Positions 38,629 through 64,000 of a stretch of 64,000 nt of DNA are shown piece after piece. The stretch lies in contig CALCZP010000003.1 of the NCBI GenBank assembly GCA_937903035.1, positions 1,156 through 65,155 of the forward strand. Direction: 5' to 3'. Made by a program: the position numbers and the translations under genes. Each line of letters starts with the position of its first letter. The stretch's first letter is position 1. The notes beneath the pieces are model-generated. The model worked only from the letters and a program-made list of their open reading frames with translations, was not told where the DNA came from and searched no databases. This stretch comes from an uncultured bacterium (GTDB lineage Bacteria; Patescibacteriota; Minisyncoccia; Phycocordibacterales; UBA9973).

Positions 38629-38779
38629 AATTATTGTTTTTAGTTTTTGAAAAATGTTGTTTTAGATTTGTATGTATCTTAGCATATATGACATCTTTTG
38701 TCAATGCCTTGCACATGCCTGTATTTTAGGGTCTGATTTACCCGCACAACCCACCGTTCTAGGGTATACTTGGTATACA

Positions 38780-47379: not shown

Positions 47380-47399
47380 TATTTTCTTATGATGTACCT

Positions 47400-49865
47400 A
47401 TGCCTAAAACTCACTGGTTCTCATTGAAAAAAATAGCTCTTATTGGTGTCGCAGTCGTTCTCTTTTTCATCGGCGCAGGGCTCATCTGGGCAAGTACCAT
47501 CAAACTCCCCGATATCTCAACCTTTGAAGCGCGCAAGATCGCCAATTCATCTAAAATTACTGATCGAACCGGTGAAGTGGTTCTCTATGATATTCATCAA
47601 TCAGTACGTCGTACTGAAATTCCACTCGATCAAATGGGAGATAATATCAAAAATGCAGTCATTGCAGTTGAAGATGCACACTTCTATGAACACAAAGGTA
47701 TCCGTCCAACCTCAATCATTCGAGTAATCTTTGTAAATCTCTTTAAGGGAAGCTTTGAACAAGGAGGATCCACTATCACGCAGCAAATTATTAAAAATAC
47801 ACTTTTGAATACTGATAAAACTATCATCCGAAAAGCAAAGGAGTGGATCCTTGCAGTGAAACTTGAGCGCTATTTTACTAAGGATCAAATCCTGCAAATC
47901 TATCTCAATGACGCACCATTTGGAAGCACCATCTATGGTGTTGAAGAAGCATCAAAAGCGTTCTTTAATAAAAGTGCAAAAGATCTCACTATTGCTGAAT
48001 CAGCATATCTTGCAGCAATGCTTCCAGCACCGAGCTACTACTCCCCTCTCGGTTCACACAAAGACAAACTTGATGCACGCAAGAATCTTGTGCTCAAGAA
48101 AATGAATCAGTACGAGTATATTACCGACGAAGAACTCACCTCAGCAACAAAAACAGTAGTTGTTTTTAATCCTGCAGCATCAAATAGTATCAAGGCACCA
48201 CATTTTGTATTTTATATTTTAGATTATCTCCAGAAGAAATATGGTGAGGATGTAATGGAAACAGGTGGCTATACTATTAAAACAACACTTGATTATGAGC
48301 TCCAACAAAAAGGAGAAGAAATTGTTAAAACAAAAGCACTAGAAAACGAAAAGAAATTTCGTGCATCAAACTCAAGTTTAGTAGCAATAGATCCAACAAC
48401 AGGACAAATACTCACCATGGTTGGGTCACGCGACTATTTTGATAAAACAATTGATGGTGCCTACAATATTGCAACTGCACAACGTCAACCAGGCTCATCA
48501 TTTAAACCTTTTATTTATGCCACTGCATTTGGTAAGGGGTATACACCTGAAACAGTTCTCTTTGATGTACCAACTGAGTTCTCTACCACATGTAGTAATA
48601 ATCCTGATACTTGTTATCACCCAGGCAACTTTGATGATAAATTTAAAGGGCCAATAAGTCTTCGAAGTGCACTTGCTGAATCACGAAACGTACCAGCAGT
48701 GAAACTTCTCTATCTTGTAGGTATTGACGATGCTGTTGATACAGCTCATAAACTTGGTATTACAACACTTACTGATCCAAAAGAATTTGGCCTCTCACTT
48801 GTGCTCGGAGGTGGTGAAGTTACTCTTCTTGATATGACTGGTGCATATGGTGGATTTGCAAATAGTGGGATCAAAAATCCTACAACAGGCATTCTTGAAA
48901 TACGAGATATGAAAGGAACTATTATTGAACAATATGAACAAAATCCTTTTGAAGCAATACAAAAGAATGAAGCATTAACCCTTAATGATGTTCTAAGTGA
49001 TGCAAATGCTCGTATCCCAACATTTGGAAGTCAAATTACTATACCTGGCGTTGCAGTAAAAACTGGTACTACTAACGATGATCGTGACGCATGGATTGTT
49101 GGCTACACTCCTACCCTTTCAGTTGGTGTATGGAGTGGTAATAATAATAATGCAAAGACTACTAGTGGTGGCGCAGCAATTTCAGGTCCTATTTGGAAAG
49201 CTTTTATGGAAGAAGCGCTCAAGAAAATTCCTGCAACACCGTTTGAGAAACCAATTCCAAATCCTGAATATGACAAACTTAAGCCAGTACTTCGTGGACA
49301 ATGGATGGGTAATCGAAGTGTCTGGATCGACAAAGTTACCGGACTTCTCGCAACCAAAGACACACCTCCTGAAGCTCGTATAGAAAAAGTTATTACTGAT
49401 GTCCAAGATATTCTCTATTGGATAAATAAAAAAGATCCAACTGGACCGGTACCATCAAACCCTGCGAGTGATCCACAATTTTATTTATGGAATACTCCTG
49501 TGCAGAAATGGTGGGAAGCAAATAAAGGTAAATACGGTATTACCACTGAAAATGATCTCCCAACCTCTTATGAAACAATTCATTCATCAAATACAAGTAC
49601 ATTATCAATTAAGGGATTAAAAGATGACATGAAAACAACTGATACAGCAACAGTAATGGTTTCAATAAGTGGACAGTACCCTCTCACTTCAGTCGACCTC
49701 TTTATGAATGAGAACTATCTCACTACCCTCTCTGCTCCGTTTCGATTTGTATTCACTCCAAAAGAATATGGATATCTACCAGGTAATTACACCTTTAAAG
49801 CCATAGGAACAAACTCTGTATACTCAAAAACAACAGCAACAAGCTCTATTACACTTACCCAATAG
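47400..49865 (+). CDS. Class A penicillin-binding protein (glycosyltransferase + transpeptidase, PBP1A-type) with C-terminal extension
   Basis: GT51 motifs (EDAHFYEHKGI, RQ...GGSTITQQ), transpeptidase SxxK (SSFKP), SxN, KTGT. Start trimmed to MPKTHWF; the track ORF is extended 207 nt into tyrS. Confidence 0.9.
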   Translation: MPKTHWFSLKKIALIGVAVVLFFIGAGLIWASTIKLPDISTFEARKIANSSKITDRTGEVVLYDIHQSVRRTEIPLDQMGDNIKNAVIAVEDAHFYEHKGIRPTSIIRVIFVNLFKGSFEQGGSTITQQIIKNTLLNTDKTIIRKAKEWILAVKLERYFTKDQILQIYLNDAPFGSTIYGVEEASKAFFNKSAKDLTIAESAYLAAMLPAPSYYSPLGSHKDKLDARKNLVLKKMNQYEYITDEELTSATKTVVVFNPAASNSIKAPHFVFYILDYLQKKYGEDVMETGGYTIKTTLDYELQQKGEEIVKTKALENEKKFRASNSSLVAIDPTTGQILTMVGSRDYFDKTIDGAYNIATAQRQPGSSFKPFIYATAFGKGYTPETVLFDVPTEFSTTCSNNPDTCYHPGNFDDKFKGPISLRSALAESRNVPAVKLLYLVGIDDAVDTAHKLGITTLTDPKEFGLSLVLGGGEVTLLDMTGAYGGFANSGIKNPTTGILEIRDMKGTIIEQYEQNPFEAIQKNEALTLNDVLSDANARIPTFGSQITIPGVAVKTGTTNDDRDAWIVGYTPTLSVGVWSGNNNNAKTTSGGAAISGPIWKAFMEEALKKIPATPFEKPIPNPEYDKLKPVLRGQWMGNRSVWIDKVTGLLATKDTPPEARIEKVITDVQDILYWINKKDPTGPVPSNPASDPQFYLWNTPVQKWWEANKGKYGITTENDLPTSYETIHSSNTSTLSIKGLKDDMKTTDTATVMVSISGQYPLTSVDLFMNENYLTTLSAPFRFVFTPKEYGYLPGNYTFKAIGTNSVYSKTTATSSITLTQ

Positions 49866-50107: not shown

Positions 50108-51205
50108 TTAACGGTTTGTTGGCATGATCAAATATAGGAAGGAGGTATCCTGTACACTTCGTACTACAATAGGCTTATTTGGCGCTGTAAATGATATTGA
50201 GACACTATCGCCAGAGAGTGCTTGAAAGACATCGAGAAAGTACTTTAGATTGAAACTAACCTCAATCCCCTCACCTTCAACAACGGCATCAATTGATGAA
50301 ACCGATGAACCGACATCATTATTCTTTGAATCAATTGTAATTCTCTTATTAACAGGAGAAACAGAAAAAAGTACTTGGAAAAATTTGTCAGCAAAAATAG
50401 TTGAGAGGCGAAGTGTTGAAATAAGCTCTTGTTTCATAAGTACCACCTTAGTTGTTTCAGTTTTTGGAATAATAAGTTGATACTGTGGAAAGGCCCCATC
50501 AATCAGTCGAGTAGTAAAGTAAATACCATTTCCCGAAAGTGATAACTGGTTTCGAGTAAATGTTAATTGAAGATTCTCTGGTGCATTATCAAGTACTTTT
50601 AATATATCAGCAATATTTTTATATGGAATCAATATTTTTGGAATATCAGGAATATTCTTAACCTTTAATTTCTTTTCAGCGAGACGGAATGAGTCGGTTG
50701 CGACAAAACAGAGGTTAGTATCTTCACTATAAATAAAAATACTTGCAATCTCAGGCTTAATCTCAGTGATAGCAGCAGAAAAGTACACCGAACGAATACC
50801 TTCTTGAAATACCGTACTTTTAATTTCAAAACTTTCACCTTCAACAGTAGGAAGTGTTGGGAAGTCATCATGGTTAAGACATTTAAGTACAGTCTTTGAT
50901 TGTAGGGTCGCAATAGTGAGATTATCTGCTTCAAGTGTAAGTGAGAGCTCTAGATTATCCTTTAAATTTCCACAAACATTTGATAGTAAGTCCCCTTTTA
51001 CAAGTACAATACCTTCTTCTTCAATCGTTGCAGGGATATCTATCTCAATTCCAACATTGAGATTAGTAGCTCTGATCTTGAGAGATTTTCCTGAAGCATT
51101 AATAAGGAGTCCATGAAGTGATGGGAGAGTGAGATTCTTGCCAGTCATACGCTCTGCAAGGGATACTGCTTGTTTTATTTTTTCTACGGTACATCGAGCT
51201 TTCAT
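50108..51205 (-). CDS. dnaN: DNA polymerase III beta sliding clamp
   Basis: 365 aa with a three-domain beta-clamp pattern. Immediately downstream of dnaA. Confidence 0.9.
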   Translation of the reverse strand: MKARCTVEKIKQAVSLAERMTGKNLTLPSLHGLLINASGKSLKIRATNLNVGIEIDIPATIEEEGIVLVKGDLLSNVCGNLKDNLELSLTLEADNLTIATLQSKTVLKCLNHDDFPTLPTVEGESFEIKSTVFQEGIRSVYFSAAITEIKPEIASIFIYSEDTNLCFVATDSFRLAEKKLKVKNIPDIPKILIPYKNIADILKVLDNAPENLQLTFTRNQLSLSGNGIYFTTRLIDGAFPQYQLIIPKTETTKVVLMKQELISTLRLSTIFADKFFQVLFSVSPVNKRITIDSKNNDVGSSVSSIDAVVEGEGIEVSFNLKYFLDVFQALSGDSVSISFTAPNKPIVVRSVQDTSFLYLIMPTNR

Positions 51206-51401: not shown

Positions 51402-52763
51402 TCATTTAAACAATATGCGGATATCCTCAATCTCTTTCATTAGACTCGGGTTATGTACTAACTCACTTTTAATTTTTTCATACGAATGAATGACTGTACT
51501 ATGATCTTTACCACCAAGTTTTGAACCGATTGATGGGTATGACTCATTGAAATCCTCTCGAAGGACGAACATAATGACTTGTCGTGCTCGAACAATTTCT
51601 TTACGCCGTGTTTTCTCATAAATAGTACGTTCATCAAGATTGTAATACCCTGATACAAGTTTCACTACTGTATCAAAAGACACCATTTTCTTTGGTTTAA
51701 CACTATTTTTAATAAGTAATTTAATCTCACTGAGTGCAACAGGTTTTTGACGCATTTCAGAATGCATTGCAATAACATTGAGTATTCCTTCAAGTTCACG
51801 GATACTTCCGGTTGCAACTGAAGAGATATATTGGAGAACCTCATTATCAAGTGGATATGGAAGTGTTGCAGCCTTTTCTCGAATAATAGCAAGACGTGAC
51901 TCCATATCTGGTTCTTGAATATCAATAGTCATACCTGCATTAAATCGTGTTTTAAGACGATCTTCGAGACCGAGGATGTGGTTTGGATGTTTATCAGATG
52001 AAAAGATAATATTCTTCCCTTGCTCATAGAGCGTATTAAAGAGGTGAAATAGTTCGTTCTGAGTACCATCTTTTCCTGAGATAAATTGGATATCATCAAT
52101 GATTAATACGTCTATTTTTCGAAACTTCTCACGGAATGACTGCTGACGATTGTTTTGTACTGAAGTCACAAACTCATTCATAAACTTTTCAAGTGAGGTA
52201 TAGAGTACATGCTTTTCAGGGAATGCTTTTTTAATCTCATTACCAATAGCTTGGATAAGGTGAGTCTTCCCTAAACCACTCTCACCATAGATAAAGAGTG
52301 GATTGTAGGCACTCTGAGGACGTTTTACCACTGCCTGGGAGGCTGCGTATGCAAGCTCGTTGAATGAGCCAACAATAAAACGATCAAAGGTGTATCGAGG
52401 GTTAAGGTTATCATCTCTATTAATATAGAGATCTTGCATTGGAAGTTGTGTTTTCTCTGTAAAAAGTGAATCGGTTGTTGTAGTTGTTGTAGGAGGAGTA
52501 AAGCGGCTGATAACAAATTCAACCCCTCGAATATTGTCGATATGGTTTACTAATGTCTTTAAAATAACTTTTTGGTATTTGGTTACCATCCATTCTCGTA
52601 CAAATTCGTTTGGTACTCCTATGTAAATAATACCCTCCTCTTCTTTAGTGATAGTGGTGTTCTTAAACCAGGTACTGAAATTACCTTTTGTGACTTCCTG
52701 TTCTATTTCTCCTAGGCAAGTGTTCCAGAGTGTGGAGAGGTCGTAGTGCATGGTATCTATCAT
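51402..52763 (-). CDS. dnaA: Chromosomal replication initiator protein DnaA
   Basis: AAA+ Walker A GESGLGKTHL, Walker B VLIIDDIQF, sensor/arginine finger, C-terminal HTH (…ARQVIMFVLRE…). Start trimmed to MIDTMHYD; the track ORF is extended across rpmH. Confidence 0.9.
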   Translation of the reverse strand: MIDTMHYDLSTLWNTCLGEIEQEVTKGNFSTWFKNTTITKEEEGIIYIGVPNEFVREWMVTKYQKVILKTLVNHIDNIRGVEFVISRFTPPTTTTTTDSLFTEKTQLPMQDLYINRDDNLNPRYTFDRFIVGSFNELAYAASQAVVKRPQSAYNPLFIYGESGLGKTHLIQAIGNEIKKAFPEKHVLYTSLEKFMNEFVTSVQNNRQQSFREKFRKIDVLIIDDIQFISGKDGTQNELFHLFNTLYEQGKNIIFSSDKHPNHILGLEDRLKTRFNAGMTIDIQEPDMESRLAIIREKAATLPYPLDNEVLQYISSVATGSIRELEGILNVIAMHSEMRQKPVALSEIKLLIKNSVKPKKMVSFDTVVKLVSGYYNLDERTIYEKTRRKEIVRARQVIMFVLREDFNESYPSIGSKLGGKDHSTVIHSYEKIKSELVHNPSLMKEIEDIRILFK

Positions 52764-52876: not shown

Positions 52877-53011
52877 ATGTCTCAAACATACCAACCTAAA
52901 AAACGAAAGCGCGCAACTACTCATGGATTTCTCGTCCGTAGCGCTAGTGCGACTGGTCAGAAAGTCCTTCAGGCACGTCGCCGTAAGGGACGCGCTAAAA
53001 TCGCTGTCTAG
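52877..53011 (+). CDS. rpmH: 50S ribosomal protein L34
   Basis: Hand translation gives [44 protein letters not shown]. It is absent from the ORF track because it is shorter than 60 aa. Confidence 0.85.
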
Positions 53012-53013
53012 CT

Positions 53014-53337
53014 ATGTTGCCGTCAACTGAACGGCTTACTCGCCTCGAGTTTCCTCTTGTACTTACTAATCCGTCTCTTAAAACGGTCTATAATGCGCTT
53101 GGTACCCTTAAATATACCACTACACTACCTTTGAAATGTGCTGTAATTACAAGCTCAAAACACGAAAAACGCGCTGTTATACGCAATAAACTTCGCCGAC
53201 GCATCTATACACAAATGGTTGGTTTTCCAGGGTCTGCTGTTTTGTATGTTTCAAAACAAAGTTATGGTATGGAATATCAACAAATAGAGCAGCTTTGGCA
53301 TGAATTACTCTCAAAAATTCAAAAAAATACCAAATAA
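53014..53337 (+). CDS. rnpA: Ribonuclease P protein component
   Basis: RNR motif RNKLRRRI, 107 aa, directly after rpmH. Confidence 0.85.
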   Translation: MLPSTERLTRLEFPLVLTNPSLKTVYNALGTLKYTTTLPLKCAVITSSKHEKRAVIRNKLRRRIYTQMVGFPGSAVLYVSKQSYGMEYQQIEQLWHELLSKIQKNTK

Positions 53338-53566
53338 TATAGCTATTTTAGCTATTAAGGTATATCGAGGACTACTCTCGCCTTCAGTCGGATTGTTGCG
53401 ATTTTTACCTCTATATCCGACTAATACCTGTATTTTTCATCCAACATGTTCTCAGTATGCCATTATGGCCTATACAAAATACGGGTTTTTTGACGCAACC
53501 CATAAAACAATAGGTCGTATTGGTCGTTGTCATCCTAGAAATACACCTTCTGTTGACTATCCTTAA
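53300..53566 (+). CDS. yidD: Membrane protein insertion efficiency factor YidD
   Basis: YRGLLSP…CIFHPTCSQYA motif. The 5' end overlaps rnpA, so the true start is probably downstream of 53300. Confidence 0.7.
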   Translation: MNYSQKFKKIPNNIAILAIKVYRGLLSPSVGLLRFLPLYPTNTCIFHPTCSQYAIMAYTKYGFFDATHKTIGRIGRCHPRNTPSVDYP

Positions 53567-53595: not shown

Positions 53596-54300
53596 ATGCA
53601 AACATTGTGGACCAACTTCATTTACGACCCTATTTATAACGCCCTTATTTTTATTGCACAGAACTTAACCTGGCAAGACGTTGGTGTGGCGGTTATCGTC
53701 CTTACTATCCTTATTCGGCTCATATTGATGCCCCTTTCTAAGAAAAGTATTGCTGGACAGTATAAAATGAAGCTTTTAGAGCCAAAGCTTGCTGCTATCA
53801 AGGCAAAAGGTCTTTCAAAAGAAGAAGAAGCAAAAGAAACCTTTGCACTTTATAAGACTGAGAAAATTAACCCGTTTTCAGGATGTCTTTATCTCTTAAT
53901 CCAACTTCCAATTCTTTTTGCCCTCTACTTCACGTTTATGCGTGGTGTGATTCAGCCGGAGCACTTGTACTCATTCCTTTCAACTGAAGGTCTCCATAAT
54001 ACACTATTTGGACTTATTGATATCACTAAGCCATTTCTACCACTCGCTATCCTTGCGGGTATTAGTCAGGGTGTACAGGCATATTTTGCACCAAAACCGT
54101 CGATTCCAACTGATGGAAAAGGATTTCAGGCACAATTTGCGCAGAGTCTTTCACTCCAGACTAAATATATCCTCCCAATTATCATTATCCTTATCGCTAG
54201 TCGTCTTGCCGCCGCTGTCGCGCTCTATTGGACCATTACCAATATCTTTTCTATTGTTCAGGAATACTATCTCCGAAAACGTTTTGCCGTTAGTTCTTAA
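53596..54300 (+). CDS. yidC: Membrane protein insertase YidC (short Oxa1-type, 234 aa)
   Basis: Five-TM Oxa1 core with a charged first loop (KLLEPKLAAIKAKG) and the conserved YWTITNIFSI C-terminal region. Confidence 0.8.
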   Translation: MQTLWTNFIYDPIYNALIFIAQNLTWQDVGVAVIVLTILIRLILMPLSKKSIAGQYKMKLLEPKLAAIKAKGLSKEEEAKETFALYKTEKINPFSGCLYLLIQLPILFALYFTFMRGVIQPEHLYSFLSTEGLHNTLFGLIDITKPFLPLAILAGISQGVQAYFAPKPSIPTDGKGFQAQFAQSLSLQTKYILPIIIILIASRLAAAVALYWTITNIFSIVQEYYLRKRFAVSS

Positions 54301-55545
54301 TTAAAACGAGAGCTGCCATAACAGGCCAGTTGGCTTGTCGATAAAAAAGACGATATCTTGGTTCTCATCTACCTGAAGATTAGTTGCATCAGGTGCTCGC
54401 TCTGTACCATCTGAAAGAATCGTGTAGGTATTACTTGTTGTATAGATACGATAGAACTTATCTTTAAAGCTAACAAGTCCGCTATACCACATGTCAGGGT
54501 AGCTTCCGGGTGCCATTTCCCCATTTCCTGCACAGATGAGATCCTCATTTTTAAGCCAAGTACATTTTTCAGGGAGTAGTGCAATATTTAGATTGTTTGA
54601 TACCCCTGTTTTCGTATTTAAAAGCCGAGTAATAAAGCCAGTACTTGTGCTTTGTGAGTATAAAATATAGGTCCCACTTGGACTTACTGATGTGGTAAGA
54701 CCTTTAATATTCCCAAGTACGCGAACAAGTCTTCGATCAGTTGTATCTATTTTATAGAGAAAACCATCTGCAATAGCTGCTGCTTTGGTTTGGAGCCAAA
54801 CTGTTTTTGGTGTTGATTGAATAATTATCCATTCATGAAACGGTGTTCGAAGGAGCTCTTTTCTACCTGTATTTTGACTAGTTGCGCTCAAAATACTAGC
54901 GTTTTGAGTATCACTTGTGAGATATGTAATCTGTTTTTGGTCGGCATAAACTGAAAGGTTGGTGATTTTTTCAGGAAGATATATCCCCTGTTTTTGCGTT
55001 CTAGTACCATCTTGGTTTTCAGGTGGAATCGGAACACTATATGTTGCGATTGTGCGCTGGTCATCACGAAGAAAACGAAGGATTGCAGTATTGTTTGTAT
55101 CCGCAAAGTGTCCTTCATAAACGTTAGGAATATAGATATTACTGATCTGAAGCGGTGTTGTACTGTTTCGGATCTCATACACATAGCCATTCCCTCGAGC
55201 AATATAGCGAATAACACGATCAACCACTGTTTCTGTTGTTGGTTTTTTCTTGGGATCCTCTGAAGGGATCGTCTTTGATAGGGTTTGAGTAAATGCAGAA
55301 AAACCCGCAACAGGGCTTTGGCTAAGCTGTTTGAACTTTAGTGATGTATTCTGACCTGTTTGAACGCCAGTACTACCATCATTGATAATGAGATCGCTTC
55401 CGGGTGCTACCAATGCATCACTAGGAAAGAATGTTGTTGCACCTGGAGGTTGTTCAGTACTAGTTGGTTGTTTTTTACTGTACCAATACAAAATTCCTGT
55501 GCTAACCAATAGAATTATTACTATCACAATAAGTACTTTTCGCAT
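54301..55545 (-). CDS. Hypothetical membrane-anchored extracellular protein (414 aa), first gene after the origin block in the T4SS-like cluster
   Basis: N-terminal TM, Thr/Ser-rich sequence, possibly a beta-propeller-like domain. Confidence 0.4.
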   Translation of the reverse strand: MRKVLIVIVIILLVSTGILYWYSKKQPTSTEQPPGATTFFPSDALVAPGSDLIINDGSTGVQTGQNTSLKFKQLSQSPVAGFSAFTQTLSKTIPSEDPKKKPTTETVVDRVIRYIARGNGYVYEIRNSTTPLQISNIYIPNVYEGHFADTNNTAILRFLRDDQRTIATYSVPIPPENQDGTRTQKQGIYLPEKITNLSVYADQKQITYLTSDTQNASILSATSQNTGRKELLRTPFHEWIIIQSTPKTVWLQTKAAAIADGFLYKIDTTDRRLVRVLGNIKGLTTSVSPSGTYILYSQSTSTGFITRLLNTKTGVSNNLNIALLPEKCTWLKNEDLICAGNGEMAPGSYPDMWYSGLVSFKDKFYRIYTTSNTYTILSDGTERAPDATNLQVDENQDIVFFIDKPTGLLWQLSF

Positions 55546-55570
55546 ACAAGTATTGTACTATATGTAGAAT

Positions 55571-57271
55571 TTATATTCTTCGAATGTATAAAGAATATTT
55601 CTTCTGAATACGAGTATTTGCCCATTTAACAATAGGGTTTTCTCCTACAGAAGGGTTTGGGGATGAACGGACATCCATAAGGGTTCCATCTCCTATATAG
55701 ATGAGTACATGCCCCCCTGATGTATAAGGTTTAGCACCACCCGCTTGCCATCCTATTAAATCGCCAACCTTAACCTCAATACCATTTATAAGATATTTAC
55801 CGTTTTTATTTTCGACAGTTATTATTTTTTCTGTTCCATTAAAAATATCACCAGTAAATGCTTCTGTTTTTGGTGTTATTCCCGCACATGAAAGTACTGT
55901 ATTTACATATGAACTACAATCAAGATTGATTACGGTAGATGAATATGCGGTTCCTCGTGCATCTTGTGAATAAGATACTCTACCCTTAAAACTCTGTGCA
56001 ATAGTAGGTATTGTACCAGCGCCAATATTTTTTGCGGGACAAATAATTCCTGCTGGGAATTTAATACTTTTAAAATCATATCCAGTTCCACCTTTTCCTG
56101 ACCCCACTGATCCTGATTTTGGTGGTATATCCCCTCCTTCTTCAAAATCTACCCCCACCGCCACCTTATTCAAGCTAATACTATTCTCTACAAGCTTCGG
56201 ATTGATGGTATTTAATATCAGATAGGCAGACAATGCCAACGCAAGCCCTCCTAATGCCTCAAAGAAGCCACTCTTGGCACTTGCCTTCAAAAACGGTATA
56301 TCAGTCACAATATACTGATATCCCTCATAGACGAGACGAAGCACCAACAATACTGCCGCCAAACTCACCAACAGTTTGAACATATAGTTCAGAAAGTCAT
56401 TAATGTCACAGATCTCCCCTCCCTTTCCCTTCTGAGATCGTTGTTCTTCACACAGGTCAGGATCCAAAAGTACTGAGAGTCCTGGAAATGGTGCAAGGAG
56501 ACGGTATGAGCGGGAGTCGAAGTCGGATTGAACAGAAGCTGCGTCTGTTGCAACTTTTCCTTTGTCAGAAGTGAGTATGCCAACATCAGTAACCATCTGC
56601 TTCCCTGTTGGAGAAGTGAGAAGTATTTTATAGTAGTACTTCACTTCGGTACCAAGGTCATTCAATGACCAATAGAGAGATCCGTCTGCGGCAACACCTT
56701 CAGTACTTCCTGAGATATCTGTTTTTGATTTAAAGAGCTTAGTACTACCCGAAGCATTCATTACTCCATCAGGAAGTGGTACGGTATCTAGATATAATGT
56801 CGCGGTGAATTTCTTGAAATCAGGGTGAATTGTTGTATTAATTTTACTACTAACAATTAGTGGAGTGCCTTTGGTTATTGTTGCAGGATCTGCTGCAAGG
56901 AATGTTTCTTGTGGAGTAACGATATAAAAGTCTTTCCCTTGGGCGTCACGTGCGGCAAGTCCAACAAAATAGCGTTTATCGGTCGGTATAGTGGTAACTA
57001 CTTGTGAGGCAGTTGCACCAGGCTTCAAATTGTTAATAGCGACAGTACTACTGCCTGAAACTTTAGTGTCCTGATTTAGTATTGTTGTCGTTGAAGGCGT
57101 AAAAACAAGATAGAATAACTTGTTTTTGTCAGTTGTCGGTAGGGTATATGTTACTAAAAGGCCACCTTGTTGTAATTGAGATGTAAGTGTATATCCATTA
57201 CCAGCGTGCACTAGATTGATCGGAATAACTACAAGGAGAAAGCCAAGAAGTGCAATAAAGCCCTTTTTCAT
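55571..57271 (-). CDS. T4SS-associated cell-wall hydrolase-like protein: signal peptide, extracellular domain, shared 2-TM module, C-terminal NlpC/P60-CHAP-like domain
   Basis: The C-terminus has a Cys...His pattern (DCSSYVNTVLSCAGI … GGHVLIYIGDG) like CHAP/NlpC-P60. The central 124 aa are identical to the paralogue. Confidence 0.55.
   Translation of the reverse strand: MKKGFIALLGFLLVVIPINLVHAGNGYTLTSQLQQGGLLVTYTLPTTDKNKLFYLVFTPSTTTILNQDTKVSGSSTVAINNLKPGATASQVVTTIPTDKRYFVGLAARDAQGKDFYIVTPQETFLAADPATITKGTPLIVSSKINTTIHPDFKKFTATLYLDTVPLPDGVMNASGSTKLFKSKTDISGSTEGVAADGSLYWSLNDLGTEVKYYYKILLTSPTGKQMVTDVGILTSDKGKVATDAASVQSDFDSRSYRLLAPFPGLSVLLDPDLCEEQRSQKGKGGEICDINDFLNYMFKLLVSLAAVLLVLRLVYEGYQYIVTDIPFLKASAKSGFFEALGGLALALSAYLILNTINPKLVENSISLNKVAVGVDFEEGGDIPPKSGSVGSGKGGTGYDFKSIKFPAGIICPAKNIGAGTIPTIAQSFKGRVSYSQDARGTAYSSTVINLDCSSYVNTVLSCAGITPKTEAFTGDIFNGTEKIITVENKNGKYLINGIEVKVGDLIGWQAGGAKPYTSGGHVLIYIGDGTLMDVRSSPNPSVGENPIVKWANTRIQKKYSLYIRRI
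56152..56525. repeat. Copy 1 of a perfect ~373-bp direct repeat
   Basis: Identical nucleotide run to 58080-58453 by direct comparison of the sequence lines. It encodes DFDSRSYRLLAPFPGLSVLL…KLVENSISLNKVAVG. Confidence 0.85.
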
Positions 57272-57291
57272 TCTTCAAGTGTACCACGGTA

Positions 57292-58854
57292 TTATTTATA
57301 CCTTCGTTCTGCCTCATCACGTGAAGAAATAATAGTCCCTGTTTTACATTGGTTATATACCCATACTTTCATGGCAATATCTTTTCGAAGTGAAGTACTG
57401 CATCCAAGTCCTGCAAAGTTATTAAAAATTTGGGCAGGTGTCCCACCATTACACGTTTTAACCGCTGCTTGAAAACGAGTGACACTCATCTGAATATTTT
57501 TTTCAGGATCATAGTAGATATTGATTGCATCAGCGACTGTTTTTGCACCAGCCTTAATTAGGTCATCATTGTTTTCTACAGGATCAAGAAGGATTGTTGT
57601 AGGGCTTGCTCGTTTTGGATATAAAACACCATTTTCTTTTGTTGCTGCGAGATAGGTTGTTTCATTGTTGTAAGGTGCAGGAAATACTGTTACCTGCGAA
57701 AGTCCAAACCCTTTTGAAAAGCGCCAGTCATAGTCTTTGTAAATATCGGTACTTGATCGAGGGCACTGGTTAAGAACTTTTTTATCACCATAGAGTGCCG
57801 TTGAGCCAGTAAATTTTTCACCATTAAACTTGATTCCTGATTGTACAAAAATACGACGTGACTTAATACTTGAAAGACTAGTTACATTTTCATCACATGA
57901 AATATTTTTTGCATCCCAGTCTGATTCAACAGTGTTTGAAGCAATCAAGTAACAAGGGTCAAGACCTGCTTTTGTAGCAAGTGTTTTGGTTAGTGTAATG
58001 TACTCCTGTTTTGTTTTTGATGGCTTACCAGTGATTTTAGTGAACTGTGCATCACTAATTGATCCACGGTACTCCTCAATCCCCACCGCCACCTTATTCA
58101 AGCTAATACTATTCTCTACAAGCTTCGGATTGATGGTATTTAATATCAGATAGGCAGACAATGCCAACGCAAGCCCTCCTAATGCCTCAAAGAAGCCACT
58201 CTTGGCACTTGCCTTCAAAAACGGTATATCAGTCACAATATACTGATATCCCTCATAGACGAGACGAAGCACCAACAATACTGCCGCCAAACTCACCAAC
58301 AGTTTGAACATATAGTTCAGAAAGTCATTAATGTCACAGATCTCCCCTCCCTTTCCCTTCTGAGATCGTTGTTCTTCACACAGGTCAGGATCCAAAAGTA
58401 CTGAGAGTCCTGGAAATGGTGCAAGGAGACGGTATGAGCGGGAGTCGAAGTCTTGTTGAGTTGCAGGTATTGCACTTGCGCCTGCGGCGCTGGTTGTTGT
58501 TGTGTTATATACTTTTGATTCTTCGGTTGTTTTCCCGTCTGATACTTTTTGTTTGAAATAGTATGTTGTGCTCGGGGTAAGATCGGTGAATGTCCATCCA
58601 TAGGTACCATCATTCCCTATTGCTTTTGTCGGAGGAATATCAGTTTTGATAACTGTTTTAAAATCTGCAACATTACTTAGATAGCCTTTAATACTAAATG
58701 TTTTGAATGTTGGATGTTTTACGGTATCTATCTTTCCTGCAACAGAAAAAGTACTACCACTAATCTGTGTTACGAGGTCTTGTTCAACAAGTGCCGCATG
58801 AGCAATCGAGTATGGAATTGCTAAAAAAAAGAGTGCAATAACTAAACGCTTCAT
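57292..58854 (-). CDS. T4SS-associated protein: signal peptide, FN3-like extracellular domain, shared 2-TM module, C-terminal lysozyme/lytic-transglycosylase-like domain
   Basis: Same central module as the NlpC/P60 paralogue. The C-terminal domain is rich in conserved-looking acidic and aromatic residues (…LIASNTVESDWDAK…GLSQVT…). Start may be M1 (58887) or M12 (58854). Confidence 0.5.
   Translation of the reverse strand: MKRLVIALFFLAIPYSIAHAALVEQDLVTQISGSTFSVAGKIDTVKHPTFKTFSIKGYLSNVADFKTVIKTDIPPTKAIGNDGTYGWTFTDLTPSTTYYFKQKVSDGKTTEESKVYNTTTTSAAGASAIPATQQDFDSRSYRLLAPFPGLSVLLDPDLCEEQRSQKGKGGEICDINDFLNYMFKLLVSLAAVLLVLRLVYEGYQYIVTDIPFLKASAKSGFFEALGGLALALSAYLILNTINPKLVENSISLNKVAVGIEEYRGSISDAQFTKITGKPSKTKQEYITLTKTLATKAGLDPCYLIASNTVESDWDAKNISCDENVTSLSSIKSRRIFVQSGIKFNGEKFTGSTALYGDKKVLNQCPRSSTDIYKDYDWRFSKGFGLSQVTVFPAPYNNETTYLAATKENGVLYPKRASPTTILLDPVENNDDLIKAGAKTVADAINIYYDPEKNIQMSVTRFQAAVKTCNGGTPAQIFNNFAGLGCSTSLRKDIAMKVWVYNQCKTGTIISSRDEAERRYK
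58080..58453. repeat. Copy 2 of the perfect ~373-bp direct repeat
   Basis: Identical to 56152-56525. Confidence 0.85.
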
Positions 58855-58855
58855 A

Positions 58856-59806
58856 CTAGTTGAACAAAATAGTAAACAGTCGCTCAATATGCTGCAAGCT
58901 ATATGCTACTGTGCTGATTGCGAGATTGACTCTACTCTCCCCTCCTTCATCAGGACGTGAAAGACGAAGTTCGTTTACACGTGGATCTCCTGCGATTGCA
59001 GTATCTCCAGCGCTCATTTCTATATTGAGACTATCCATAATTGATCCAAGAAATGAAAAGAAAAAAGGTTCAAAGTGGAGGATAAGCCCTGCCTGGTTTG
59101 TTGTAATAGATTGAGTACTCCCAATCGCATAGTTGATAAATCCGTCATTATTTTGATACGCAACCAATGATGGAGAGACCGGGGTTATGGTTACTGCATT
59201 TGTGCCGACAAATGAGCCTGATTCAAGGGTTAGTTCAACTGTATCACTCGTCGCTAGTGCACCATTTTGAAATACAAAGCTTGATTTGTTATACCCTGAG
59301 CTATCTTGCTGTATTTCGTCGTTGTGAGACCATTTAAAAACATTATTTTTAGGAGCAGTTGCTGCAGGAATACCTACTACTCGGATAAGGGCTCCATCTG
59401 CAGGAAGTGCTTTTCCTTTATAAAAAGGTGGTGTGTATGAGTCAGCTGCCTCCCACAAGAGATCAACACTTGCAGGTCTCAGTGTTATTGAGGCAGTTGC
59501 GGGGATAATTGTTCCTGAGGTTGTTGCGATAATAATACCTGTCTGACCTGCCTTTGGTGCAGTTACAACAATTTCGGTTTTGCCCGTACCCGAAGTAATC
59601 AAGGCACCATTGTATTTCCACGTAATAACTGTCTGATTTAAATCAAGGCTAAAACTCTGAGCCTTCAAAAAGACTTGCTGGCCAGGGGCAGGATTTCCTG
59701 GAGTAGCAGTAATTGCCATGTCTGCTGACTGCGCAACGACTGTTCGTGGTATGAGTACATATACAGATAGTACGATAGCTGCCACAATGGCTCGATACAT
59801 GTCCAA
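58856..59806 (-). CDS. Secreted hypothetical protein (316 aa) in the T4SS-like cluster
   Basis: Signal peptide MDMYRAIVAAIVLSVYVLIPRTVVAQS. Confidence 0.45.
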   Translation of the reverse strand: MDMYRAIVAAIVLSVYVLIPRTVVAQSADMAITATPGNPAPGQQVFLKAQSFSLDLNQTVITWKYNGALITSGTGKTEIVVTAPKAGQTGIIIATTSGTIIPATASITLRPASVDLLWEAADSYTPPFYKGKALPADGALIRVVGIPAATAPKNNVFKWSHNDEIQQDSSGYNKSSFVFQNGALATSDTVELTLESGSFVGTNAVTITPVSPSLVAYQNNDGFINYAIGSTQSITTNQAGLILHFEPFFFSFLGSIMDSLNIEMSAGDTAIAGDPRVNELRLSRPDEGGESRVNLAISTVAYSLQHIERLFTILFN

Positions 59807-59822
59807 AGTATAGCACTTTTAC

Positions 59823-61637
59823 TTAGTGTTGCTCACGAAACTCCTGCTTTGCACGCTGAATCGAAATCACCTGGGAAGGATCTGATGTAATAATTTGGTC
59901 TTCGGTATATGAGGCAATGATTTTAAGTGCGACATGTTTGAGACCAGCAAAGAATATCCCCTCCCCAACACCTGACTCGAGCAAGAGATATTTTTCTTCA
60001 TCGGTAAGGTTGAATGTCTTTTGGAGGACATCTACCGTTGACGGTGATTGCTTGAGGAGTAGTTGAATGGATGAGTTGGTCACAATCGGTACGCCATACG
60101 GACTCTTCATAAAGTCACCTACGTCTTGGGTGATCGTACAGAGTCCGAGGTAATATTTACGCCCACGTTTTGCAATCGAGTACAAAAATGATGCTGTGTC
60201 ATCTGATTTCATCATCCACCACGCCTCATCAACTACAAGGAGGCGCTTTTTGAGTTGTTTACGGACAGCATTCCAAATAAAGTGTGTCACGATGTACATC
60301 GCTGCTGGTTTGAGATCGTCCTCCATGTCTCGTACCGAAAAGACCACAAATTTTTTGTTAATGTCGACGTTGGTTGGCTGGTTGATGAATGTTGCCCATG
60401 AGCCGTGGGTATATTTGGTGAGACGAGCAAGGATAGACTCTGTGCCCTCCATACCTGAGAGTACCATTTCAAAGTCCGAGAGGAGTGGTGGCTCAATACT
60501 GCGAAAGTCTGACTCCGCAGTGATATCTTTGAGACTATATGTTTCGGTGATCGCACGGTCAATAATAGAGTCTTCCTCAGGAGATAGCCCCCCAAGCATA
60601 ATACGCATGAGTCCGACGATATTGATGATATTGCTTCTGAGGACATCTGATGGAGACTCATCTTCCCGAGGGATTGGTAGGTCAAATGGGTTGATATGGT
60701 GATCTGATGAGAGTGAAATGTTAAAGTATCGCCCACCAATCGCTTCGGCGAGATATTCGTATTCACGTTCAGGGTCGATCACGATCACATCAGTATCAAA
60801 CATGAGGGTTCGCACAATTTCAAGTTTGGTTGCGTATGACTTACCTGCACCGGATTTGGCAAAGATAATTGAGTTATAGTTTTCAAGGGAAAATCGATCG
60901 AAAATCACGAGTGATGAGTTGTGGCGATTCACACCATAGAGAATCCCCGTCTCACTCGTAAGGTCAAATGAAACGAATGGAAACATACTCGAGATTGGCT
61001 CCGAGTTCATCTTTTGAGTCACATTGAGCATATCAGTACCAATCGGTGTCACCGTCTTGAAACCGTCTTCTTGTTGAAAGAGTGTTGGCTTGATATAGAT
61101 CATTTTGGATTCAAGCATGCTCTTGATCTCGCTCTCACTTCGAAACAGATCGGTTTCGTTATCAGCATAAATGGTGATATAGAAACCAATGTTAAACATC
61201 TTTTCTTGTGCTTGAGTTAGGTTGTCACGAAGCTCTTCGAGGTCTTGGTATGCGGTATCAAGCATTGGGTCCCTGACGAGACCTTTTTGTTGACGGACAA
61301 TAATCTGACTTTCAACCTCGGCAATTTTCTTTTGAAAATGTTTAAGGAGCTCTGCTGTTTCGATCGGATTTACGTAGATTGCAATATCAAAGACTTTGTC
61401 GAGGTTGATGATCGGAGTGAGCCAGTTGTCAGTGAGAAAACGCGGGTATGAGATGACAAAAAAGGTACGGACAAGTTTGTCCCCAATACGCATTGCTTTT
61501 GGGGTGATCTCAATCGCTGATGGTGCGATTTTGTCGGAGAGCTCCATTGTTGCCCATTCATGAATATCAGCTGTTGAAATAGGCAGGAGTTTACTTCCAT
61601 TTGTTGGTTCTTGTTTTGCTGAGCCGAATATCGACAT
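59823..61637 (-). CDS. VirB4/TrbE-family type IV secretion ATPase, C-terminal part (ATPase domain)
   Basis: Walker A FAKSGAGKSYATK, Walker B LLVVDEAWWMM, and the VirB4 C-terminal region. Confidence 0.8.
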   Translation of the reverse strand: MSIFGSAKQEPTNGSKLLPISTADIHEWATMELSDKIAPSAIEITPKAMRIGDKLVRTFFVISYPRFLTDNWLTPIINLDKVFDIAIYVNPIETAELLKHFQKKIAEVESQIIVRQQKGLVRDPMLDTAYQDLEELRDNLTQAQEKMFNIGFYITIYADNETDLFRSESEIKSMLESKMIYIKPTLFQQEDGFKTVTPIGTDMLNVTQKMNSEPISSMFPFVSFDLTSETGILYGVNRHNSSLVIFDRFSLENYNSIIFAKSGAGKSYATKLEIVRTLMFDTDVIVIDPEREYEYLAEAIGGRYFNISLSSDHHINPFDLPIPREDESPSDVLRSNIINIVGLMRIMLGGLSPEEDSIIDRAITETYSLKDITAESDFRSIEPPLLSDFEMVLSGMEGTESILARLTKYTHGSWATFINQPTNVDINKKFVVFSVRDMEDDLKPAAMYIVTHFIWNAVRKQLKKRLLVVDEAWWMMKSDDTASFLYSIAKRGRKYYLGLCTITQDVGDFMKSPYGVPIVTNSSIQLLLKQSPSTVDVLQKTFNLTDEEKYLLLESGVGEGIFFAGLKHVALKIIASYTEDQIITSDPSQVISIQRAKQEFREQH

Positions 61638-61685
61638 TGGTAGCTATAGTATAGCAGTATATTACTGCAAGTGGATGGAGTATGA

Positions 61686-62327
61686 CTATGAACCGTTTGC
61701 TTGAGTCGTTGTTTCTCCAGGATTGTATGTCTTGTAGAGTAGTTCGATAACTTCTTGTGTTCCGAGTTGTGCCACGCGAAGACCAAGTCTGGTGAGTCCT
61801 TGTTCTACAACACTCATACGCTGTTCAATTTGTGTTCGTTCTTCTTCAAAGTTTTTAATATCATCTCCTATGGTGTCTTTACCTTTGTTTAAAAACGAAA
61901 GTATTTTTGATACCCCTCCCCCTTTTTGGTTGAGTACTGGTGGAATATATGGGATGACTACAAAGAAATTTTTGCGCATGATGTTGACGTTGTCAGTAAA
62001 TGAGCGGATGAACTCAATGTATTCCCGTGTTTGTACTTGGAGGAGTTGTTCTTGTTGTTCCTTGAGTCTGTTTTCAAGAGTGACGAGGTATGGTCTCACA
62101 TCATAGCGTCGTGATTGGATCACTATTTCGATTGGAAAGTCGAGTGTATTGAGAAAGCTTTGGAACTGCACCAATGTTGCTCGCTGTTCATCATATGACT
62201 TAAGCGAGAGATTGATCGAGGACACGAGTACTACAGATGCAAGTGTCCCATCTTTCAAGACCACGATACCATCGCGTACTTCTTGGACAGGGACAAATTG
62301 TTGGGCTGGAGTACCGATGATTGCCAT
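61686..62327 (-). CDS. VirB4/TrbE N-terminal domain encoded as a separate ORF
   Basis: IVVLKDGTLASVVLVSSINLSLKSYDEQRATLVQFQSFLNTL parallels the VirB4 N-terminus. Same frame as the downstream ATPase ORF, separated by 48 nt containing three stops. Confidence 0.55.
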   Translation of the reverse strand: MAIIGTPAQQFVPVQEVRDGIVVLKDGTLASVVLVSSINLSLKSYDEQRATLVQFQSFLNTLDFPIEIVIQSRRYDVRPYLVTLENRLKEQQEQLLQVQTREYIEFIRSFTDNVNIMRKNFFVVIPYIPPVLNQKGGGVSKILSFLNKGKDTIGDDIKNFEEERTQIEQRMSVVEQGLTRLGLRVAQLGTQEVIELLYKTYNPGETTTQANGS

Positions 62328-62336
62328 ACTGTAGAT

Positions 62337-62753
62337 TTAGTTAGTCGGATTTTGAACGTCGAGGCTCCATGAGAGGGTTTTGAGTTTACTCTCAGAAAGT
62401 GTAGCACGATTTGTAGGAGCAGCCGGGATAGATTTCTTTGTTTCAACTTTTTGTTGTGATCGCCAGAGGTAGAGTCGTGAGCGCAGATAGTATTTGATGA
62501 ATGATTCAACTGTATATATAAAGGGCTTTTCGTTGTACTTGAAAAAAGCGAGCGCAAGTGCAAAGCCTGCAAATGCTGGGACAAGTACGATTGCGACAAA
62601 TGCGGGGAGAAACTTCATCGACAGATAGGCAAATCCTGCTCCCCCGGCAAGGTATGCGAACTGTTTGAAGGTGAGTGGTCCAAAGACCTTGTCTTCGATA
62701 TCAATAAATTGTGGAACCTTAAACTGCATAGGTATAGTATAGCGTGAACGCAT
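62337..62753 (-). CDS. VirB3/PrgI-like small two-TM T4SS membrane protein
   Basis: 138 aa with two adjacent TM helices (FAYLAGGAGFAYLSMKFLPAFVAIVLVPAFAGFALALAFF), immediately upstream of virB4. Confidence 0.5.
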   Translation of the reverse strand: MRSRYTIPMQFKVPQFIDIEDKVFGPLTFKQFAYLAGGAGFAYLSMKFLPAFVAIVLVPAFAGFALALAFFKYNEKPFIYTVESFIKYYLRSRLYLWRSQQKVETKKSIPAAPTNRATLSESKLKTLSWSLDVQNPTN

Positions 62754-62785
62754 ACAAAAAGCGCCTCAGTGGGAGGCGCTTTTTG

Positions 62786-63307
62786 TTAGAGATCGATTGG
62801 TTCGCGGTAGAGATCTGCTGATGCAGGAGGTGTAGTGCTTGTCGGAGTTTTATTGAGACTCACATCGCGCTTCATCGGAGGTGCAATCACTGCTGATTGG
62901 GTGAAGCGGCTCCCCATTGTTTCAAGTGCTGTCTGAGAAATGGTTTGCGTAGATTCAAGTTCTGCTTTTTTGAGCTCTTCTTCTGTCGGGCTAAAAAAGG
63001 TGCTGATCTCTGCTGCACGACTCAGGATTTCGACATTGATAGCATAGAGGATATTGACTGCAAGCTTCTCGTCTACTCCCTGTGCTTTCCATTCTTCCGC
63101 AATATCTTCTACGGTTTTGAGTCCCAGTACCAGCATTTTTGCGGCATGCTCTACCATTGTTTTCTGAGTATCAGAAAGGTTGAGTGCCTTTGCTATGGCA
63201 TTTATGAGGACAGTGAAGCTCTTGCTCGACATGAAGTGGAGCACCTCAGGTGGTGTTGTTGCAAATGCTTCTTCGATCGGGTCTATTGTAGTGGTATCAG
63301 TATCCAT
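62786..63307 (-). CDS. Hypothetical acidic protein (173 aa) in the T4SS-like cluster
   Basis: ORF only. Confidence 0.35.
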   Translation of the reverse strand: MDTDTTTIDPIEEAFATTPPEVLHFMSSKSFTVLINAIAKALNLSDTQKTMVEHAAKMLVLGLKTVEDIAEEWKAQGVDEKLAVNILYAINVEILSRAAEISTFFSPTEEELKKAELESTQTISQTALETMGSRFTQSAVIAPPMKRDVSLNKTPTSTTPPASADLYREPIDL

Positions 63308-63309
63308 GG

Positions 63310-63954
63310 TTATTTTTTGGGTTCTGCTGGCTTCTCATCTCCCCCTTCTTTCTTTTTCTTACTTTCTTCGTCATTATTATACTTTTCAAGCTTTTCTTTT
63401 TGAATGTCACGCTCTTTGATTGCTTCTCGCAGTTCTTTGATTGAAGCTCGTCGTTCTTCGTTGGCAACTCGAGCGGTAATTTTATCAGCATCAGATGATG
63501 ATGGATTTTTGATGATAGCCTCATCCTTCTCGATCTCTGTCTCCAGCTTCGCGACATTTGTTGCAACCGCGCGCTTGAGGTCATGTTGTGGATCATCAAT
63601 CTTGATGTTGTCTGCATCAAGGTGTTCATTACCAGGTATACTCTTGATTGCTTCTTTAAGCGTATTCTCGTACATATCAATCTTTGCCTGTATCTTTGCA
63701 GCGGTCGTACCGGTTTGTTTTTGCGCCGCCTTGATAGTGGCATCGGCTGCTTTGAGATGAATGTTACCGATCTGATCAATAGCTCCACCTGCAAGATCGA
63801 TACCAACTGCTGTACTAATAGTGCCTACCAATCCTGGAGCAACTACGCCTAGCGTGCCAGCCAAAGTCCCTATTGCTGTTCCTAGTGGGGCACGCTCACC
63901 CTCTGTCATCCATAGTGAGTTTGCCTTGAGATTCTCAGCATATTCAGCACGCAT
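63310..63954 (-). CDS. Hypothetical coiled-coil, Lys/Glu-rich protein (may extend beyond the window)
   Basis: ORF with a long coiled-coil and KE-rich tail. An upstream start beyond position 64000 cannot be excluded. Confidence 0.35.
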   Translation of the reverse strand: MRAEYAENLKANSLWMTEGERAPLGTAIGTLAGTLGVVAPGLVGTISTAVGIDLAGGAIDQIGNIHLKAADATIKAAQKQTGTTAAKIQAKIDMYENTLKEAIKSIPGNEHLDADNIKIDDPQHDLKRAVATNVAKLETEIEKDEAIIKNPSSSDADKITARVANEERRASIKELREAIKERDIQKEKLEKYNNDEESKKKKEGGDEKPAEPKK

Positions 63955-64000
63955 TGCAGCTTCAAATGCTTTCTTATTTTTGATAGGACCGTATTGTGCA

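Follow-up and report, generated by a model that had tools for sequence, protein, structure and literature searches.

Introduction

The type IV secretion systems (T4SSs) of Patescibacteria form a distinct group, and here we analyze one of them, encoded at positions 54301-64000 of a 64,000-nucleotide stretch of contig CALCZP010000003.1 (the whole stretch is called the window). In Southlakia epibionticum, a Saccharibacterium and the only species tested so far, transposon sequencing (Tn-seq) showed that epibiotic growth depends strictly on the T4SS cluster SEML1_0006-0019, and this system possesses pilins and lacks a relaxase and a coupling protein (Wang et al. 2023, PMC10633639). A survey of 3,035 genomes recovered a monophyletic patescibacterial VirB4 clade nested in MPF-FATA, found TrsD, PrgI, VirB6 and VirB2-like proteins to be widespread and relaxases almost missing, and explicitly reported the proximity of the system to dnaA, dnaN, rnpA, rpmH and ksgA (Quinonero-Coronel et al. 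2025, PMC12102498). A 2025 review considers these systems unique among monoderm T4SSs (PMC12857230), and in Paceibacteria parasitising methanogens the pilins of the T4SS rank among the most strongly expressed genes without a known function (PMC10936435). The role of the system has been called "completely unknown" (PMC11665869), and neither its substrate nor the way it acts has yet been established (PMC11665869, PMC12857230).

Judged from its gene content, the locus examined here is a T4SS typical of Patescibacteria, carried by a Ca. Nomurabacteria/Paceibacteria genome. A chromosomal operon of this kind lies beside dnaA in nearly all ultra-small Patescibacteria. As the system itself, the absent relaxase and the proximity to dnaA were all published between 2023 and 2025, the core finding is known and the locus adds nothing categorical to the published picture. 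For specialists, the interest lies in the polymorphic enzyme heads mounted on a pilin module, in the identity of duplicated modules and in an invariant orientation. Pilin-enzyme fusion, identical duplicated modules and fixed orientation are not mentioned in PMC10633639 or PMC12102498, and a literature search gave no prior description of the fusion; the swappable enzyme cassettes, the identical modules and the invariant orientation are therefore possibly new. Taken as a whole, the locus is very probably a non-conjugative patescibacterial T4SS with pilin modules that bear enzyme heads.

Comparison with described systems

The locus shares with the described patescibacterial T4SSs a VirB4 with an adjacent TrsD-like protein, PrgI/VirB3, VirB2-like modules in a monoderm, hydrolases encoded downstream of virB4, the lack of a relaxase or coupling protein nearby and a chromosomal site beside dnaA, dnaN, rnpA, rpmH and ksgA. 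An interpretation made earlier from the nucleotide letters alone (the sequence-only reading) had regarded this composition as unconventional, but it is the standard one for patescibacterial T4SSs (PMC10633639, PMC12102498). Its proposal of a T4SS of Gram-positive or Candidate Phyla Radiation (CPR) type, as opposed to a classical conjugative element, agrees with the VirB4 and PrgI matches reported below and with the absence of a relaxase nearby. A difference emerges with respect to Saccharimonadia, which carry arrays of small separate pilin genes, whereas here and in the Paceibacteria relatives examined the module lies inside a protein of 300-900 amino acids (aa), between an FN3/Ig-like N-domain and a variable cell-wall enzyme.

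Similarities extend to the MPF-FATA systems of Firmicutes (pCF10 Prg/Pcf, the CTn2 CD1110 family and pGO1 Trs), with which the locus has in common a CD1110-type VirB4, PrgI, a TrsD-like protein as in pGO1, wall hydrolases of the lytic transglycosylase (LT) and P60/CHAP types and the lack of an outer-membrane core. However, the relaxase, the coupling protein and an origin of transfer (oriT) context are missing here, the locus sits off any mobile element, a VirB8-like protein was not found, and a VirB2-like module, lacking in Gram-positive systems (PMC12857230), is present. As in PrgK, TraG(pIP501) and CwlT(ICEBs1), membrane-tethered extracellular enzymes for glycan-strand and peptide cleavage are encoded next to virB4; here, in contrast, the two activities reside on two proteins, anchored by identical two-helix hairpins and each preceded by an adhesin-like domain, and the enzyme type is exchanged between species.

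The analogy with the X-T4SS of Xanthomonadales (PMC6536674) and with polymorphic toxin systems, such as contact-dependent inhibition (CDI), Rhs and the Tae/Tge/Tle effectors of type VI secretion systems (T6SSs), is functional only. All of them join a conserved delivery part to interchangeable heads that degrade peptidoglycan or lipid (PMC6536674 for X-T4SS), and tandem cassettes have an identical sequence stretch in common. Unlike the X-T4SS and the toxin systems, the locus shows no XVIPCD signal and no VirB7-11, and its enzymes are tethered by transmembrane (TM) helices instead of being injected as soluble effectors; no immunity gene is linked to the cassettes, the next gene encoding a conserved propeller.

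Operon organization and VirB4 motor

From position 54301 to the window edge only minus-strand genes occur, separated by spacers of 0-56 nt and convergent with the rpmH-rnpA-yidD-yidC block. Nine genes were counted in 54301-64000, one fewer than the ten of the sequence-only reading; eight are complete and the ninth open reading frame (ORF; 63310-64000) is open at the window edge. The region beyond this edge was read on the source contig (ENA ERZ650244, NODE_1, 405 kb), to which the window is antiparallel. The ninth ORF corresponds to the C-terminal 230 aa of a 1260-aa protein, upstream of which genes for proteins of 305, 773, 290 and 119 aa and then ksgA and uvrD were found on the same strand. 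The full operon thus comprises 13 genes over about 17.3 kb (equivalent window coordinates 54301 to ~71603), is visible in its entirety in L084, and is represented in the window by its 3' two-thirds.

The VirB4 ATPase body (604 aa; 59823-61637, minus strand) matched NCBIfam conju_CD1110 with an E value of 7.7e-115 and 384.8 bits (cut-off 325) over profile positions 174-732 of 752, and Pfam P-loop_TraG with E 1.2e-24. Searches against the PDB returned the solved VirB4 domain 4ag5 (E 6.8e-41) and TrwK (E 2.4e-7), and the translation contains a Walker A motif, KSGAGKS, and a Walker B motif, LLVVDEAW. Its best plasmid relatives, which are also the nearest outside the CPR, are CD1110-type ATPases from Firmicutes and Actinobacteria, with 29-35% identity.

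The adjacent 213-aa protein (61686-62327, minus strand) aligned with NCBIfam VirB4_plasma (E 4.2e-11, positions 106-233), TrsD (E 3.1e-6) and positions 2-118 of conju_CD1110, and a PF26593 TraC-like assignment is on record for it; the PDB search gave no match. The two ORFs therefore tile a single NCBIfam model, as the sequence-only reading had supposed in speaking of a VirB4 in two ORFs. They share the same frame and are separated, within 48 nt, by TAG, TAA and TAG stops. In a genome-collection scan, at least 598 species-level genomes encoded a VirB4 relative, and the best 80 of them (labelled L001-L080) served for the comparisons of gene order and identity; all are metagenome-assembled genomes of Patescibacteria (Nomurabacteria, Paceibacteria and similar labels), with VirB4 identities of 72-92%. 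The TrsD-like protein was a separate ORF in 80/80 of these relatives. Stop-codon recoding or a frameshift joining the two ORFs is excluded by the three stops and by this consistent separation, which together indicate that the split is natural. By its profile matches, the 213-aa product is a stand-alone VirB4 N-terminal domain, named TrsD in the T4SS literature.

Upstream of it, a two-TM protein (62337-62753, minus strand, with a called start at 62729 on the source contig) matched Pfam PrgI with E 7.1e-11 and 42.9 bits (cut-off 27), confirming the VirB3/PrgI-like assignment already made from the sequence.

Two hydrolases with a shared pilin-like module

Downstream of virB4, two minus-strand genes encode secreted proteins of common architecture, in which a signal peptide and a beta-sandwich N-domain are followed by a common central module and a C-terminal enzyme. 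The 566-aa protein (55571-57271) shows a beta-rich N-ectodomain, the VirB2-like module at aa 250-373 (56153-56524) and an NlpC/P60 domain at aa ~426-537, recognized by Pfam NLPC_P60 (25.8 bits, cut-off 23) and Amidase_5 (26 bits, cut-off 21). The second protein (520 aa in an ORF of 531 aa; 57292-58854) carries an FN3-like N-ectodomain, and its C-domain returned no direct SLT match in Pfam, NCBIfam or PDB. Full-length homologues with 38-41% identity carry Pfam SLT, the catalytic E-S and GLxQ motifs are retained in the alignment with them, and the AlphaFold2 model consists of an FN3 domain, a helical hairpin and an LT fold. Homologues and fold together, being the only routes by which this C-domain was resolved, assign it a predicted lytic-transglycosylase fold. 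Two hydrolases had been foreseen by the sequence-only reading; the NlpC/P60 enzyme is supported by Pfam, and the one called lysozyme-like has the predicted LT fold.

In the AlphaFold2 model, a conserved Cys pair is followed by the two long helices that make up the module (175-207 and 211-241). The module is encoded by a repeat on the minus strand, whose copies at 56153-56524 and 58081-58452 are 100% identical over 372 nt and 124 residues, bearing in mind that short-read assemblers may erase a few real differences between copies; in the flanks, identity falls to about 30%. The shared two-TM module noticed in the sequence-only reading is thus fully substantiated. The tandem hydrolase arrangement is present in three independent assemblies, and as these include the unique junction between the two genes, we consider it real. 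An assembly artefact is an unlikely origin of the repeat, given the recurrence of the junction and of the same pattern in four other genomes.

The module family was analyzed on 68 positional homologues, with 86 further representatives for cassette typing. Pfam T4SS_pilin matched 54/68 positional homologues at E<1e-3 (best 9.2e-10), and TrbC/VirB2 matched 5/68. A cleaved signal peptide followed by two TM helices implies that both ectodomains should face outward, which is the VirB2 topology. The cluster likewise encodes the VirB1-like cell-wall hydrolase expected of monoderm T4SSs.

Cassette variation among relatives

An exhaustive search identified 6,758 representative proteins carrying the module. 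In a collection of 179 single-module proteins, at least 100 aa precede the module in 171 and at least 120 aa follow it in 174, so that in this lineage the predicted pilin module sits inside a long protein (300-900 aa) and is not a small free pilin. The C-terminal cassettes observed include NlpC/P60, VanY, Peptidase_M15_4, YkuD, SLT, SLT_2, SLT_4, Amidase_2, 3D, M74 and GDSL lipase; domain assignments thus describe a pilin module fitted with interchangeable cassettes, which represent at least nine families of cell-wall enzymes. The closest relatives already differ from each other, with SLT and P60 in the window, P60 in L001 and L002, VanY in L004, SLT_4 in L005, SLT and Amidase_2 in L007 and SLT_2 in L011, and such exchanges separate species whose VirB4 proteins are 83-92% identical. 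The enzyme head is the single variable position in an otherwise rigid operon, and is an obvious candidate for host specificity.

Most relatives possess a single cassette, and two module genes were observed in five genomes, namely the window, L007, L008, L012 and L018. In 5/5 of them the duplicated modules are 100% identical in DNA, over 372, 402, 820, 395 and 758 nt, with a sharp fall to random identity outside, compared with only ~30-60% module identity between species. We read this pattern as gene conversion between tandem copies; the need for both products to fit a single machine may favour it.

Within the module, nucleotide conservation among ten close relatives is highest (0.82-0.84) at the codons for ILNTINPKLV, just before the variable enzyme junction, and this stretch could serve as a homology arm for cassette exchange. 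Tandem modules also occur within single proteins, with four in P0297 (618 aa) and P0299 (612 aa) and two in P0302; these proteins look like covalently concatenated pilin arrays. By eye, P0297 and P0299 display SLT-type motifs (ESGG, GLMQ/GVMQ) in their C-terminal region.

Conservation and gene order

Gene order and orientation were the same in 63 of the 65 species-level relatives with enough flanking sequence. The succession prgI, trsD, virB4, 316-like gene, pilin/enzyme gene and 414-like gene, followed by a convergent yidC, was found in 63/63 loci, and dnaA-dnaN came next in 57/57. Of the relatives with a full 10-kb downstream flank, only L016 and L075 lack yidC and dnaA after the operon, and these two could serve as examples of a relocated cluster.

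Across the 80 species, the median identity of VirB4 to its counterpart in the window was 76.5%, compared with 57% for DnaA, 55.5% for TrsD, 49% for DnaN, 48% for the penicillin-binding protein (PBP) PBP1a, 46% for both PrgI and YidC and 30-33% for the three extracellular proteins. On these identities, the cytoplasmic motor is more constrained than the replication initiator and the surface parts evolve fast. The greater conservation of VirB4 with respect to DnaA supports the idea of a machine indispensable well beyond Saccharibacteria.

No relaxase, coupling protein or integrase was detected in the cluster or in the 9 kb past the window edge, and no relaxase or coupling protein among the other window ORFs. 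The lack of a relaxase and VirD4 noted by the sequence-only reading is therefore upheld, also in the 9 kb beyond 64000, where it had recommended a search for VirD4, a relaxase or an integrase. The fixed order near dnaA and the constraint on VirB4 point to a core, vertically inherited system and not to an island. That reading had also stated that its interpretation would fall if the ORFs proved to be ordinary conserved core genes of related genomes; they are indeed conserved and syntenic in 63/65 relatives, and their identity as a T4SS stands.

Other components of the operon

The last gene of the operon (54301-55545, minus strand) encodes a 414-aa protein with no Pfam or NCBIfam match, which was found in 67 relatives. 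Its AlphaFold2 model (pLDDT 86.8, pTM 0.77) shows an N-terminal TM helix (2-24), a disordered linker and an all-beta ectodomain (71-414), for which Foldseek returned TolB, acylaminoacyl-peptidase and WD40 propellers at E ~1e-7. This TM-anchored beta-propeller model excludes the protein as the missing VirB8. Directly downstream of virB4, a secreted beta-rich protein of 314/316 aa (58856-59806, minus strand), found in 77/80 relatives, gave only a weak Invasin_D3 match (E 0.019), and a 46-sequence family profile had no PDB relative; from these weak hits it may be Ig-like. A fast-evolving acidic helical protein of 173 aa without TM segments (62786-63307, minus strand) has no Pfam or NCBIfam match and was detected by tblastn in only 4 relatives.

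The 1260-aa polytopic protein, whose C-terminus is encoded at 63310-64000 (minus strand), comprises a signal/TM segment, an ectodomain of ~340 aa, about 8 TM helices at 382-779 and a long coiled-coil tail; it is kept in 67-68 loci and has no Pfam or other family match. The sequence-only reading had recognized no VirB6 homologue, but this protein is a VirB6-like candidate, with the architecture of an "extended VirB6".

Orientation and replication origin

The operon points at yidC and dnaA invariantly in the loci described above (63/63 and 57/57). On its downstream side the window carries, on the plus strand, rpmH (52877-53011; identified by direct reading of the L34 sequence and by a recorded Ribosomal_L34 assignment on the source contig), rnpA (53014-53337; Pfam Ribonuclease_P), yidD (53300-53566; Pfam YidD) and yidC (53596-54300; Pfam 60KD_IMP). 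These are followed on the minus strand by dnaA (51402-52763; 453 aa on the source contig with a called start at 52763, the longest ORF reaching 52889; Pfam Bac_DnaA, DnaA_N and Bac_DnaA_C) and dnaN (50108-51205; Pfam DNA_pol3_beta). The sequence-only reading had described the cluster as running head-on against replication between core genes co-oriented with it. The invariant orientation towards dnaA holds; the head-on position depends on an origin that we infer, as DnaA boxes are not enriched and GC skew is ambiguous in the relatives. The co-orientation of the flanking core genes did not hold, since on the far flank ksgA and uvrD lie on the strand of the cluster, and the operon is consequently not an inverted island between co-oriented genes.

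A divergent rpmH and dnaA pair is the classical origin arrangement. The pair found here fits it, and so does the plus-strand GC skew of this genome, which goes from negative values over 1-50 kb to neutral or positive ones from ~54 kb and past the window, as expected for an origin near dnaA; the turn near dnaA is weak. It is nevertheless conceivable, if rather doubtful, that the origin lies upstream of the operon and not between rpmH and dnaA, in which case the cluster would not be head-on and a single fork would run in the direction of the operon, ksgA, uvrD, dnaA, dnaN and most genes of the window, with only the short rpmH-yidC block opposing it. Consistent with such a position, about 70% of the genes to the left of dnaA share the minus strand with the operon, and the same-strand run extends upstream into ksgA and uvrD. 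In the relatives GC skew does not change sign at dnaA, and the operon coding strand has a positive skew, the same sign as on the dnaA side, in 77% of loci. DnaA boxes gave 13 matches against 18.5 expected, and the spacers flanking dnaA are short.

The stop codons of the convergent yidC and 414-aa genes abut with a 0-nt spacer (54300/54301) and no terminator-like hairpin is found nearby, so that convergent transcripts would overlap. Promoter and terminator scans gave counts at or under the shuffled expectation, with no hit at this junction.

Possible function

We propose that VirB4 and its TrsD-like partner dock on PrgI and on the polytopic protein, and that VirB4 could provide the energy to pull the hairpin modules out of the membrane and into a short pilus, filament or stalk. 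The FN3-like N-domains and the enzymatic C-domains would remain outside the cell, so that the filament or its base would display adhesion domains together with enzymes able to cut cell walls. The host envelope at the contact site would be at least one target of these heads, whose action would open a route for the uptake or exchange of macromolecules, and the machine would not be used for conjugation. Action on the host envelope is favoured because close relatives swap the enzyme type and because VanY, YkuD and GDSL lipase cannot punch holes.

Several observations weigh against this interpretation. The window modules score 18.8 and 18.6 bits with T4SS_pilin, below the Pfam cut-off of 26.6, and as the module profile matched no solved pilin in the PDB, the "pilin" could be a mere membrane hairpin anchor. 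The VirB6-like candidate owes its name to architecture alone. A VirB8-like (NTF2-like) component was not found, the 414-aa protein being a propeller and the 316-aa protein having no solved relative, in a modelled set that did not include the upstream 119-, 290-, 305- and 773-aa proteins. A coupling protein may have its gene in another part of the genome. Moreover, LT and P60 are the pair of hydrolases with which Gram-positive conjugation systems cut the donor's own wall, which makes a self-directed role plausible.

This last point leads to a serious rival, in which the hydrolases are ordinary VirB1-type enzymes, like PrgK, TraG(pIP501) and CwlT, anchored by the hairpin and opening only the thin wall of their own cell for T4SS assembly; the similarity to pilins would have no structural meaning and the variety of cassettes would reflect neutral turnover. 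CwlT, TraG and PrgK combine lytic transglycosylase and NlpC/P60-type activities, the same pairing found in the window, and the organism does make peptidoglycan, as indicated by PBP1a at 47193-49865; the sub-threshold pilin scores and the missing PDB match also fit. We nonetheless regard this possibility as the less likely one, because most relatives have a single cassette, because VanY, YkuD and GDSL lipase are not wall-opening enzymes and because T4SS_pilin is matched by 54 of the 68 homologues; furthermore, cassettes that differ at a VirB4 identity of 83-92% are hard to explain if the target is a conserved self wall. Somewhat less probable still is a device for the import of DNA or nucleotides, comparable to Helicobacter ComB or archaeal Ced, which would feed a nucleotide-auxotrophic cell and use the hydrolases only to reach host DNA. 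Import has been proposed (PMC12102498, PMC11665869) and agrees with the lack of a relaxase or coupling protein nearby and with a weak NCBIfam similarity to CedB (E 5.9e-8) and CedD (E 1e-4), but the CedB match is far weaker than those to conjugative VirB4 proteins, and the cluster genes examined contain no recognizable DNA-binding domain. A decayed integrative conjugative element, now without its relaxase, coupling protein and integrase, is suggested by the closeness of VirB4 to the conjugative CD1110-type ATPases of Firmicutes and by a large serine recombinase in the window (20830-22149). This explanation is effectively refuted for this lineage, as position and order are identical in 63/65 species-level relatives, the GC content of the cluster is not distinct, the constraint on VirB4 exceeds that on DnaA and the recombinase lies 32 kb away, across dnaA.

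Starting from a non-conjugative T4SS with enzyme-bearing pilin modules, we tentatively put forward, as a speculative extension, that the Paceibacteria "pilin" is a polymorphic carrier of weapons or tools. A VirB2-like hairpin, inserted in the filament or its base, would display at the cell surface an adhesin-like domain and an exchangeable enzyme head matched to the host envelope, thereby acting as a determinant of host range, and gene conversion would keep paired hairpins identical so that both fit. Transcription towards dnaA might then be selected, either for its timing relative to replication or for a faster evolution of the surface parts. The catalytic domains of the hydrolases are easy to express and assay.

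Other features of the window

Outside the operon, an apparent gene-free gap of 1.3 kb at 45.9-47.2 kb was recognized as the tyrosyl-tRNA synthetase gene, masked by an over-long PBP ORF. The large serine recombinase mentioned above (20830-22149, minus strand; Resolvase, Recombinase and Zn_ribbon_recom domains) sits within a 20-26 kb stretch of lower GC content (0.38-0.39) and is a possible sign of an integrated element; it has no relation to the T4SS operon.

The window also contains genes of the type IV pilus, the other surface machine essential in Saccharibacteria, at less than 40 kb from the T4SS, namely PilM (16892-17965, minus strand, E 2.8e-28) and a PilB-like T2SSE ATPase (38672-40489, plus strand, E 1e-113). 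Finally, a 653-aa protein with a DUF11 repeat (35447-37408, minus strand, E 1.2e-7) is probably another surface protein.

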